A DNA stretch of 48,288 nt, from the IMG/VR virus record IMGVR_UViG_2923307698_000006; one strand, 5' to 3'. The position numbers were made by a program. This document shows, in pieces, positions 30,001-33,000 of this stretch; position 1 is the stretch's first letter; each line of letters opens with the position of its first letter. The DNA is from a virus (lineage: Duplodnaviria > Heunggongvirae > Uroviricota > Caudoviricetes).

Positions 30001-33000
30001 AAATCAGATATGGAGTGGGCTGTAGTCCGGAAGCCTGAATGACACACGGGGACTACAGCCCAAGAAATGAAAAAAGGCCACGCAGTTGCGCAGCCTGATA
30101 AACCCTGGTTAAAATCCACACGATAACAACACAACAATATCAGTATCTCATGCTATTGCCCGAACCCATTCGGGCATTTTTTTACCCATAAAAAAGCCCC
30201 TCCGGAGAGGGGCATGTTTGCATGCACATTCTTTTTCTTGCATGGTGCCGGGTGCCTCCCGGTGAATTCAGTATCAGCACCTGAATCCGCGATTACCCCA
30301 TATTCCTTCTTGCTGATTGCCCCACCGCACAGGGGGATTCACCATGCAGAAGTGTTTTTAATAAACAGCAAACAAAAAAATCAAGCATTATGCAGGCTGT
30401 TTCTTTTTATCACCGGCCACAGCAATACCACAATGCCGCAGACCAGCACTCCATCCGCCAGCACCGACATGATCCTGCTGGTGAAATCCACCATCACCAC
30501 TAGAAACAGCAGGAGTGCCACAGCGGCCAGACGCAGTTTTACCGTCACAGGTGGTTCTCCAGTCGCAGGCCAAGAACACCAGCAATCTCTTCCAGAACCT
30601 TACGCTCTTCCGGCTCAATTTCACCATCTGCTTCAGCAATGGCCACCGCCACATCCAGCACATCTTCCGCTTCACGCGTATCGTGTTTCACATCTTCAAT
30701 TTCACGCAACGCTGCACGACGACCAATTTTAAAATTGGTGTCAAGCTGACCTGTGATCGTGGCACTGATGGCATTAATTTCTGACGTAAATGCGGACAAT
30801 GCTGGCTGGTTACGTAATACCTGTTCGATCTTCGCTTTCTCTGAAGTCTCACATTCACCATCTGCATAGGCCACCAGGTAGGCAGCATTAATAACCGCCT
30901 GTGCCAGATCGCGTTTCTCAAACTTTTTAATTTCAGTTGCTGCTCTGCGGGTTTTCTTTTTGAAAATACCAAACATCGTGACTTTTCCTTTTAGTGGGTG
31001 AGCCTGCGCCCGGGGGTGACCAGCCCACAGAGAAAGTCACACTGACCATCCCGTAAGCTCACCCCTGAAAGGCTCTGTGGTTTTTGATGTACGCCGGGCG
31101 TGGCGCGGAAATAAAAAAAAGGTCCGCCAAAGCGAACCTTAAAGATCAGAGAGGGATATTTTTTATTGATGAACAAAATTCAGCCAACCATAAGGTTAAC
31201 TACAAAACAACATGCAAATACACGCTACCTACAACGGCAAGCAGATAAGAAAAATGCAATCGCTACGAAAACCAAACTCAGGATTAATCAGCCAACTGAT
31301 TTGGTCGGCAGTTGTAAATCTCAGCCAGTTTTTCCAGTGTTGATTTTCGCGGAGCTCCTGCTCTCTCAAACTGAGATACGGCTGACTGTTTAACCCCCAG
31401 GCGCTCCGCCACTTCCTGTTGAGTCATTCGCCTGTAAATCCGCCATGCTGCCAACAATGACACATCATCATCAATCATGATGGATACTACTTCATGAGGT
31501 ATTGTTTCATTGTCATTCTCTCCGGCTTCATACTGGATGCTTTCAAAATCATCATCAGGATCTGCCAGACTTAACAGCCGTTCATATTCAGCAACTGACA
31601 TAATGACCCCGGTTCTAACACCGGCATTATCAGTAATAAACTGGACACTGTTTTTCATATCATTGCCTTTCGCGATTGAATGTCGTTCAGCAAACTGGCG
31701 GTCTCCCGCCAGCCTCCCTTAGTATGTGGTTGTGCTTCTGCGCTTAATTTCCTTAATATCCAGGACAACAGGATCACCATCCTCAACATCAAAAATAACC
31801 CTGTACACGCCGACCCTCAAACGGAATCGATTGTCACTCCCTGATAGCTTTTTAAAATCCATGGCTACCAGAGGAAAATCCTTTAGCGCACCGACCTTAT
31901 CCTTTATCGCCTGCCGATACCGCGTATCCACACGAAGTAACTGCTTCAGGGCTGTCCTTGTCCATCGAACCTCAATCATTATCCCCCCCTCTGATTCGTG
32001 AGAAAACATGATTATTTTCGAGAACAACTTTACACCCCATACTTATATATTGCAACAAGACTTATGAAAAAATAAGCATTAATTAATCAATCAACAGCTT
32101 TACACGTCAGAATTTCTCTTATCTCGCTCACCGTCTGCTCAAACCGTTCAGCCTCAAGCTCAAAACGCCTATTGCCCGACGACCAAGCGAAAGCGCGGCT
32201 TTTATCGTGGAACCTGACCCCATAAAAAAGTCGGCAACCAAATCACCCGGACGACTGCTGGCCTCTATTATCTGACGCAACATATCTGCCGGTTTTTCAC
32301 AGGGGTGTTTGCCCGGATAATACTGTACAGGCTTATACATCCAGACATCCGTATACGGAACAGCAGCCGATACAGAAAAATAACGCCGCAAAGATTTGTA
32401 CTCCTCCAGCAGGCTGGCATATTGCCGGTTAAGTTCACTGTATGTGCTGACCAGCTGGTGGTGTGGCTTTTCCAGTTCCCCGCGTTGATGTTTTTCTGCT
32501 GCAACACGCGCAAACAACGCCTGCAGTTTTCTGTAATCATCCTCGTTCGGTAACTGCCACTGGCGGGCACCAAACCAGTGCGACACCATGTTTTTCTTTC
32601 CGGTGGCTTCCGCTATCTGTTTCGACGTTATCCCCAGTGATTCACGCGCATCACGAAAGTAAGAAATCAGCGGAGACATCACATGCTGTTTAAGCTCGCG
32701 CTCCTTTGCCGCATAGCCGCCATTTTTTGGCTGGTATGGCCCCTGATAATGTTCAGCAAACAGAATACGCTCTGTGGCGGGAAAATACGCCCGCAGGCTT
32801 TCCTTACTGCACCCGTTCCAGCGTCCGGACGGCTTCGCCCAGATGATATGGTTCAGCACGTTAAAGCGTTCGCGCATCATGATTTCGATATCAGATGCCA
32901 GGCGATGACCACAGAACAGGTAAAGACTTCCGGCAGGCTTCAGTAACCGCCAGAACTGCGCCAGACACTGGTCCAGCCATTTCAGGTAATCATCGTCGCC

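Follow-up and report, generated by a model that had tools for sequence, protein, structure and literature searches.

The stretch of DNA analysed here, referred to as the window, comprises 48,288 nucleotides of a lambdoid prophage (IMG/VR record IMGVR_UViG_2923307698_000006). At 31284-31979 it carries a pair of genes that an earlier note on this DNA had described as a type II toxin-antitoxin (TA) module with the toxin gene first. Both open reading frames (ORFs) are found on the minus strand at exactly these limits, and the pair is confirmed as a real and fairly ordinary two-gene cassette in an Escherichia coli lambdoid prophage: a toxin gene, a gap of 60 nt, an antitoxin gene and, downstream, a terminator of its own. 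As a whole, the cassette is quite probably a self-contained type II TA unit, with a RelE-type toxin, a helix-turn-helix (HTH) antitoxin and autoregulation, that is carried by the phage as a moron. A moron is an independent unit of promoter, gene and terminator (PMC3594210).

The toxin, a protein of 86 amino acids, is best read from its sequence and predicted fold as a RelE-proper, ribosome-dependent mRNA endonuclease. A 102-residue version of the ORF, initiated at TTG, also figures in the ORF list. Homologues from ten genera, however, start at the position of the ATG, and the upstream sequences diverge immediately before it; therefore, the 86-residue form is considered to be the real toxin. 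In NCBI it is labelled 'type II toxin-antitoxin system RelE family toxin'. It passes the gathering score of PF05016 (33.2 bits, cut-off 23, E = 8e-8), the model of the RelE/ParE superfamily that Pfam names ParE_toxin, and it matches phrog_1213, 'RelE-like toxin' (7e-21). An exhaustive HMMER search of 1.84 billion cluster representatives retrieves 490 relatives when the cut-off is E <= 1e-3 and 23 when it is E <= 1e-10; almost all have a length of 82-91 residues. Conservation was judged on 63 relatives that are 31-85% identical to the window protein. In this alignment, W6, A10, L32, P36, L45, R53, R55, G57, R60, F63, R81 and T85 are conserved in at least 90% of the sequences, and Y86, the very last residue, is invariant. 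According to hidden Markov model (HMM) alignments, R53, R55, R60, R81 and Y86 are the counterparts of K54, R56, R61, R81 and Y87 in E. coli RelE, where R81 has been proposed to pair with K54 in acid-base catalysis, R61 has a stabilising effect on the transition state and Y87 is important for catalysis (PMC5416850). The earlier note had held that a toxin lacking RelE/ParE catalytic residues would speak against its reading; the RelE counterparts are present.

The same assignment emerges when the family is compared with solved proteins. The 63-member profile reaches Methanocaldococcus jannaschii RelE3 at 2.6e-8, Pyrococcus horikoshii aRelE at 8.4e-8 and E. coli RelE at 2.4e-6, and it also matches RelE of Thermus thermophilus, RelE1 and RelE2 of Mycobacterium tuberculosis, and YoeB; no HigB is found at E <= 1. 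The AlphaFold2 model (predicted local distance difference test, pLDDT, 88.7) has a beta-alpha-alpha-beta4 topology, with a strand at residues 2-6, helices at 8-16 and 19-34, and four further strands; this agrees with the RelE microbial-RNase fold, in which two N-terminal helices pack on an antiparallel sheet. When this model was submitted to Foldseek, ranks 1-12 were all RelE proteins, with template modelling (TM) scores of 0.71-0.79; ParE structures occupy ranks 17-39, the first HigB, from Shigella flexneri, appears at rank 22, and Vibrio cholerae HigB2 at rank 41 (E = 0.2). The RelE/ParE fold anticipated in the earlier note is thus borne out by PF05016, by the model and by the conserved residues, but its designation of the toxin as HigB-like is not, as both profile and Foldseek favour RelE-proper. 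Membership of the HigB/HigA family in the strict sense, that of Proteus Rts1, is contradicted by the same two rankings. The name HigBA holds only loosely, for a toxin-first RelE-like gene followed by a gene for an HTH antitoxin.

The antitoxin is a protein of 124 residues that does end, as had been claimed, in an XRE-type HTH (HTH_3, E = 3.7e-12, residues 72-120). NCBI labels it only as a 'helix-turn-helix transcriptional regulator', and PADLOC returns generic HTH matches only. Its family comprises about 80 clusters of 119-130 residues, conserved over their full length, in Escherichia, Salmonella, Photorhabdus, Xenorhabdus, Yersinia, Pectobacterium, Serratia, Pantoea, Haemophilus and other genera. 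The N-terminal motif QFItDe.G..q.VvLPI.EYERL is followed by an acidic linker with invariant D49 and P54 in DDETIPHEVV, and LLAAWRIYR opens the HTH. When the N-terminal 66 residues are scanned alone, PF18506 (RelB-like) is detected in all 22 members (best 9.9e-9) and PF02604 (Phd/YefM) in 12 of the 22 (best 4.6e-4); the window protein itself stays below the Phd/YefM-RelB-like threshold (14.6 bits, cut-off 27). Its residues 7-32 align with beta2-beta3-alpha3 of E. coli YefM (residues 28-52, 40% identity; the YefM sequence used is identical to PDB 2A6Q).

The AlphaFold model of the antitoxin (pLDDT 86) contains a beta-hairpin (6-9 and 15-19), a helix (22-31), a linker (32-54), a second helix (55-63) and an HTH bundle (68-114). 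Confidence is 75-91 for residues 1-30 and about 63-72 for the linker, although AlphaFold2 may be confident on segments that fold only upon binding. In the model, only the linker at 32-54 looks flexible. The N-terminal segment that the earlier note took to be probably disordered is therefore likely to be more than a disordered tail: a conserved hairpin and helix are predicted for residues 1-31, and PF18506 is found in every member scanned. A stand-alone form of the N-terminal module was also sought and rejected: the profile search with the module alone returned, apart from fragments, almost exclusively proteins of 119-130 residues that possess the HTH as well. The two-domain architecture is therefore fixed. 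No solved structure covers the whole protein.

The control elements of the pair lie directly upstream of the toxin gene (Table 1). The putative sigma-70 promoter aligns column by column with TTGATC-N17-TATAGT in Salmonella and TTGATG-N17-TATATT in Photorhabdus. An operator palindrome, which the earlier note had proposed to look for, is indeed present as the inverted repeat CTTAT-N6-ATAAG. The window contains it once (0.09 occurrences expected), namely at the promoter of the pair, and it recurs in Salmonella with its spacing unchanged. A second putative half-site, TATAAGT, lies inside the promoter spacer; taken alone it is not enriched in the window, and E. coli, Salmonella and Photorhabdus all have an ATAAG half-site at this place in the spacer. 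Across 13 lineages, the 100 nt from -120 to -20 of the toxin genes contain 39 ATAAG/CTTAT pentamers in all (13 x 100 nt), a density 17 times that of the flanks and about 7 times the expectation from regional composition. Pantoea (L029, L030) and one metagenome-assembled genome (L037) are devoid of CTTAT/ATAAG and have TTAGAT/ATCTAA inverted repeats at the equivalent positions, a motif swap which suggests that operator and HTH recognition helix have co-evolved. There is, in sum, good comparative evidence for autoregulation of the pair by the HTH antitoxin, which would bind CTTAT/ATAAG. The best sigma-70-like site of the surrounding 3-kb region is a different one, TTGTCA-N16-TAAAAT on the plus strand (31831-31858, 10 of 12 consensus matches). 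It is antisense within the toxin gene and points at its 5' end, with the -10 overlapping conserved Phe-Lys-Lys codons; chance alone would give the region as many sites of this kind as it has.

The gap between the two genes holds a stable GC-rich hairpin (-20.6 kcal/mol, z-score (z) = -5.2), and none of 200 shuffled sequences folds as well. The genes do not overlap, and in most relatives the gap measures 62-77 nt. Among 12 lineage representatives, 8 have hairpins of different sequence at this position whose z is about -1.9 or below; Salmonella, Xenorhabdus, Serratia and Actinobacillus possess such counterparts, and that of Photorhabdus is weaker. Neisseria shows a short GC stem with a stability no better than that of shuffled sequence, and among the 12 representatives the hairpin is absent from Yersinia, Pantoea and Rodentibacter, where the gap is only 11 nt. 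A plain intrinsic terminator was considered and rejected, since a run of T follows the hairpin only in Xenorhabdus. Neither inspection by eye nor the promoter scan found a convincing -35/-10 pair for the antitoxin gene in the 60-nt gap, and the Rfam scan of the cassette gave no known RNA family at gathering scores. The hairpin could be an element of mRNA processing or stability that sets the toxin-to-antitoxin ratio.

The terminator that the earlier note had placed at 31111-31138 was recovered with slightly wider limits, about 145 nt past the antitoxin stop codon, and is a strong one (-13.4 kcal/mol, z = -2.1); its T run extends to about 31109. Since it has a terminator and a putative promoter and operator to itself, the pair qualifies as a moron. 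Its location is in the late region, as had been stated: it is co-oriented with the late genes in the interval between Q and the lysis genes. To see it simply as a module on the late transcript is therefore correct as to position and incomplete as to expression, the putative promoter and operator of its own making it more than a mere passenger.

The combination of an 86-residue and a roughly 124-residue protein recurs in E. coli, Salmonella, Photorhabdus, Xenorhabdus, Yersinia, Pantoea, Serratia, Neisseria, Rodentibacter and Actinobacillus. In a census of one genome per species, 41 loci of the antitoxin family were collected; a RelE gene lies immediately upstream in 27 of these (damaged in two), a remnant in one, and none in 13. 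Loci with an antitoxin and no toxin are L015, L016, L018, L019, L021, L023, L027, L028, L048 and L051, and also L005. In Buttiauxella (L028) the same DNA methylase as in the window is followed by the antitoxin alone, and in Haemophilus influenzae the antitoxin gene sits between secG and purL, with no toxin gene upstream. Such antitoxins may be anti-addiction remnants or free-standing regulators. Yersinia pestis NCTC5923 has two copies of the pair (L038, L039), one with an intact 86-residue toxin and the other with a toxin ORF truncated to about 47 residues; many Y. pestis toxin entries in the databases are partials of 70-77 residues. Where both genes are present, they are co-inherited and under purifying selection: the identity matrices of toxin and antitoxin correlate with a Mantel r of 0.90 (26 distinct pairs, 0 of 2000 permutations), and between E. 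coli and Salmonella the ratio of nonsynonymous to synonymous substitution rates (dN/dS) is about 0.05 for the toxin and 0.08-0.10 for the antitoxin, values that are approximate because dS is saturated.

E. coli prophages carry a methylase-toxin-antitoxin-TerB block behind Q antiterminators of three families (PF03589, PF06530 and DUF1133). In Salmonella prophages the pair stands alone, 262 nt after a Q of a fourth family (PF06323), directly behind a terminator and before the holin gene. In Photorhabdus it adjoins type VI secretion system (T6SS)/PAAR or LemA genes, with no phage genes in view. The cassette thus seems to move about as an autonomous unit, for which the place behind Q is a recurrent landing site. 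The E. coli block with the orphan methyltransferase (L055-L062) is found in two or three prophages of some genomes, for example CP050998.

Table 1. Features of the cassette and of the surrounding Q-to-holin region, in the order of minus-strand transcription
Feature	Position	Strand	Remarks
Q antiterminator	33729-34550	-	PF03589
65-aa ORF	33303-33500	-	phrog_331; between Q and methylase
Terminator-like hairpin	33301-33318	-	followed by T8 run; overlaps end of 65-aa ORF; candidate tR' of the late operon
N6/N4 DNA methylase	32128-33153	-	PADLOC MTase_II, 7.8e-148
Putative operator	32061-32076	-	inverted repeat CTTAT-N6-ATAAG, directly upstream of -35
Putative sigma-70 promoter	32027-32055	-	-35 TTGCAA 32055-32050, 17-nt spacer, -10 TAAAGT 32032-32027
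Putative second operator half-site	32041-32047	-	TATAAGT, inside promoter spacer
Toxin gene, RelE family (RelE/ParE superfamily)	31719-31979	-	86 aa; ATG at 31979, stop at 31719; preceded by GAGGGGGGG
Intergenic hairpin	31689-31718	-	stable, GC-rich, in 60-nt gap, directly after toxin stop codon
Antitoxin gene	31284-31658	-	124 aa; ATG start
Antitoxin domains (residues)			YefM/RelB-like beta-hairpin-helix 5-31; acidic linker with conserved DxETIPHEVV 32-63; Cro/C1-type HTH 68-120
Intrinsic terminator	31109-31140	-	9-bp stem 31140-31119 with 5 G-C pairs, 4-nt loop, then TTTTTTTTATTT (T8ATTT)
TerB	30545-30976	-	
STnc100 small RNA	30184-30376	-	between TerB/DUF3927 and nanS-p, in Q-to-holin moron slot
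AgvB anti-GcvB small RNA	30121-30182	+	back to back with STnc100
nanS-p esterase	28123-29973	-	
Holin	27614-27829	-	

In the window, the pair lies between Q and the holin gene, on the same strand as both. The order along the minus strand is DUF968, RusA, Q, the 65-residue ORF, methylase, toxin, antitoxin, TerB, DUF3927, STnc100 with AgvB, nanS-p, holin, endolysin and Rz. The Q-to-lysis interval is the slot in which Stx phages carry stx. The part between Q and the holin gene is a general landing ground for morons, here the methylase, TerB, small RNAs (sRNAs) and nanS-p besides the TA pair. The region is 99.5% identical to Enterobacteria phage PPyecE_EH1910, and chromosomal prophages in 10 of 5,426 complete E. 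coli genomes match it at 95-100% identity. A plasmid origin of the pair was rejected, as 72,556 plasmids gave no match at about 85% nucleotide identity or above. Elsewhere in the window, an Rfam match to the sok antitoxin RNA (114 bits, 36581-36755, minus strand) upstream of DUF968-RusA-Q marks a second TA locus in the same prophage, a type I hok/sok system; HOK_GEF genes are found at the equivalent place of related prophages (L055, L057, L060, L061). The sRNA DicF lies in the immunity/early region (43160-43211, plus strand) and the Hfq-binding sRNA STnc490 within the tail-gene region (14259-14382, minus strand).

The canonical RelE proteins of known structure (M. jannaschii RelE3, 3BPQ; P. 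horikoshii aRelE, 1WMI; M. tuberculosis RelE1 and RelE2, 9G12 and 3G5O; E. coli RelE, 4FXE and 4V7J) have the fold, the size (about 85-95 residues), the basic catalytic set and the C-terminal tyrosine in common with the window toxin. They are, however, only 20-30% identical to it, their gene follows that of the antitoxin, and the counterpart of K52 is not conserved in the window family. Furthermore, their antitoxins, whether ribbon-helix-helix RelB, archaeal RelB or YefM-like, are without an HTH, whereas the window antitoxin has one. As to YefM/Phd antitoxins (YefM, 2A6Q; M. tuberculosis RelB1, 9G12_C), the matches of the window antitoxin family to PF02604 and PF18506 fall on the segment that aligns with YefM, and their partners YoeB and M. 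tuberculosis RelE are relatives of the window toxin. Compared with YefM, the window antitoxin lacks the first half of the DNA-binding and dimerisation domain, and DNA is predicted to be bound by the fused C-terminal HTH instead; the similarity is short and statistically weak.

The V. cholerae HigB2-HigA2 pair (5JAA; PMC5416850) resembles the window pair in having the toxin gene first and an antitoxin with an N-terminal neutralising part, presumed here, and a C-terminal HTH. In HigA2 this HTH serves both dimerisation and DNA binding, and the authors of that study call the loose use of 'HigBA', based on gene order and an HTH antitoxin, misleading (PMC5416850). No sequence similarity was detected between the two systems for either protein. 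Moreover, the disordered N-terminus of HigA2 folds into a helix and then a strand, whereas in the window antitoxin a hairpin and then a helix are predicted, with a long acidic linker. The HigA2-like architecture ascribed to the antitoxin in the earlier note can thus be upheld for the order of the domains; homology to HigA2 was not detected. The founding HigB-HigA pair of Proteus vulgaris Rts1 likewise has its toxin first, a toxin of the RelE/ParE superfamily and an HTH antitoxin; HigA, however, is globular, binds the toxin with its folded domain and is without the 65-residue N-terminal extension. As a unit, the cassette is comparable to stx, nanS-p and TerB in the lambdoid Q-to-S interval, which are also independent units in the late operon of varied phage backgrounds (PMC3594210), the difference being that the cargo here is a TA pair and not a virulence or fitness factor.

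Taking these elements together, a mode of action can be proposed. Judging from its fold and residues, the toxin would enter the ribosomal A site and cleave mRNA there, with R53 and R81 acting as the K54/R81 acid-base pair, R60 stabilising the transition state and Y86 taking the part of Y87. By analogy with YefM, RelB and HigA2, the part of the antitoxin that binds and neutralises the toxin may be its N-terminal half, consisting of the beta-hairpin-helix and the acidic DxETIPHEVV linker, and the comparative data suggest that its HTH would repress the pair's own promoter via the CTTAT/ATAAG repeats that flank and overlap it. In a lysogen, the gene order points to low-level transcription from this promoter, stopping at the cassette's terminator. 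The position of the pair further implies that, after induction, RNA polymerase modified by Q and started at pR' would continue through the whole cassette to the lysis genes. Provided that the antitoxin is as labile as those of other type II systems, the toxin would be set free and would stop translation once the prophage is lost or gene expression is shut off, for instance by another phage. The earlier note had mentioned abortive infection and prophage stabilisation as possible outcomes. On a rough estimate, selfish stabilisation (addiction) of the prophage or the cassette has somewhat less than an even chance of being the role; abortive-infection defence is a lesser possibility, and about the same applies to another role or none.

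Other explanations of the pair have to be considered. The toxin could be conceived as a ParE-type gyrase poison rather than an mRNA endonuclease, given the Pfam name of PF05016, a phage record that labels the protein 'plasmid stabilization protein' and the ParE structures among the Foldseek matches. Nevertheless, the family profile reaches ParE only at E = 0.075, as against 1e-8 to 1e-6 for RelE proteins (2.6e-8 for RelE3), the Arg/Arg/Arg/Tyr catalytic set of RelE is conserved with the tyrosine as the last residue, and 86 residues leave no room for the C-terminal extension that ParE toxins carry. A gyrase poison is thus very improbable, and ParE, like HigB, was rejected as the identity of the toxin on the profile and structure rankings. 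It is also quite unlikely that the pair is primarily a transcription-factor module, with an HTH protein that controls genes of the phage or the host and a RelE-like protein that serves as an attenuated co-regulator instead of arresting growth as a toxin. Orphans of the antitoxin gene do occur often (13 of the 41 loci, including the methylase-linked one of Buttiauxella) and the databases label the antitoxin only as a transcriptional regulator, but loss of the toxin followed by retention of the antitoxin for anti-addiction would produce such orphans equally well. In addition, the catalytic residues of the toxin are nearly invariant, its dN/dS is low, and the one CTTAT-N6-ATAAG of the window is found at the pair's own promoter.

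A further explanation, to which we attach only a small chance, assigns the cassette to the lytic programme: read-through by Q would override autorepression and the intergenic structure and shift the toxin-to-antitoxin ratio, the toxin then degrading host mRNA or helping to time lysis. The pair is indeed co-oriented with the late operon, it lies immediately after Q and its terminator in four Q families, and the conserved hairpin separates the two genes, with its T run in Xenorhabdus. On the other hand, the pair occurs with the same gap in non-prophage contexts, such as those of Photorhabdus near T6SS or LemA genes, the hairpin is without a T tract in most lineages and missing altogether in three, and the Q-to-holin slot collects morons generally. 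It could be imagined, with little probability, that the cassette is a dual-mode device, autorepressed in the lysogen through the CTTAT/ATAAG operators. After induction, the Q polymerase would override both repression and hairpin and shift the balance of toxin and antitoxin, and a RelE-type nuclease would be deliberately released late in infection, with the effect of halting translation in the host, setting the time of lysis or keeping out co-infecting phages. Such a device would explain the repeated capture of the cassette right behind four unrelated Q antiterminators. A secondary novel element of this reading would be the antitoxin, as a chimera, so far undescribed in structure, in which a truncated neutralising module of YefM/RelB type is fused to an XRE HTH.

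A self-contained, autoregulated TA moron remains the preferred explanation, and several observations weigh against it. The promoter in the window is weak, with 8 of 12 consensus matches and a score below the threshold of the promoter scan, and the partner of the second operator half-site is degenerate. The counterpart of the E. coli RelE residue K52, R51 in the window toxin, is variable among the 63 relatives. The match between antitoxin and YefM in hhalign is short and weak (E = 0.0044, probability 7.8%) and covers about half of the YefM domain, and the roughly 13 of 41 loci with an antitoxin and no toxin indicate that the antitoxin may have an independent life. Type II operons do not usually have a 60-nt gap with a strong hairpin between their genes, a feature for which the favoured model gives no account. 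Finally, PADLOC has no model matching the toxin, so that a defence role is without support from that database, and the literature searches found no characterised member of either family; the text of the H. influenzae ToxAvapA paper gave no link to this one.

The pair adds an uncharacterised member to a kind of system that is already known; it does not overturn current understanding, and its overall importance is modest. What it does provide is a meaning for the widespread 'helix-turn-helix regulators' of about 124 residues in Enterobacterales, Pasteurellaceae and Neisseria, which can be seen as the antitoxin partners of an 86-residue RelE subfamily, and this antitoxin family gains a candidate operator, CTTAT/ATAAG, and a domain map. 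A TA pair is also added to the cargo of the Q-to-lysis moron slot in the lambdoid prophages of the type found in enteropathogenic and enterohaemorrhagic E. coli (EPEC/EHEC), a slot whose genes are strongly co-induced with lysis. The intergenic hairpin could inform how toxin-first operons set the ratio of toxin to antitoxin. Should the cassette prove to stabilise prophages or to abort infections, it would be relevant to how pathogenic E. coli and Salmonella retain their prophages and resist phages.

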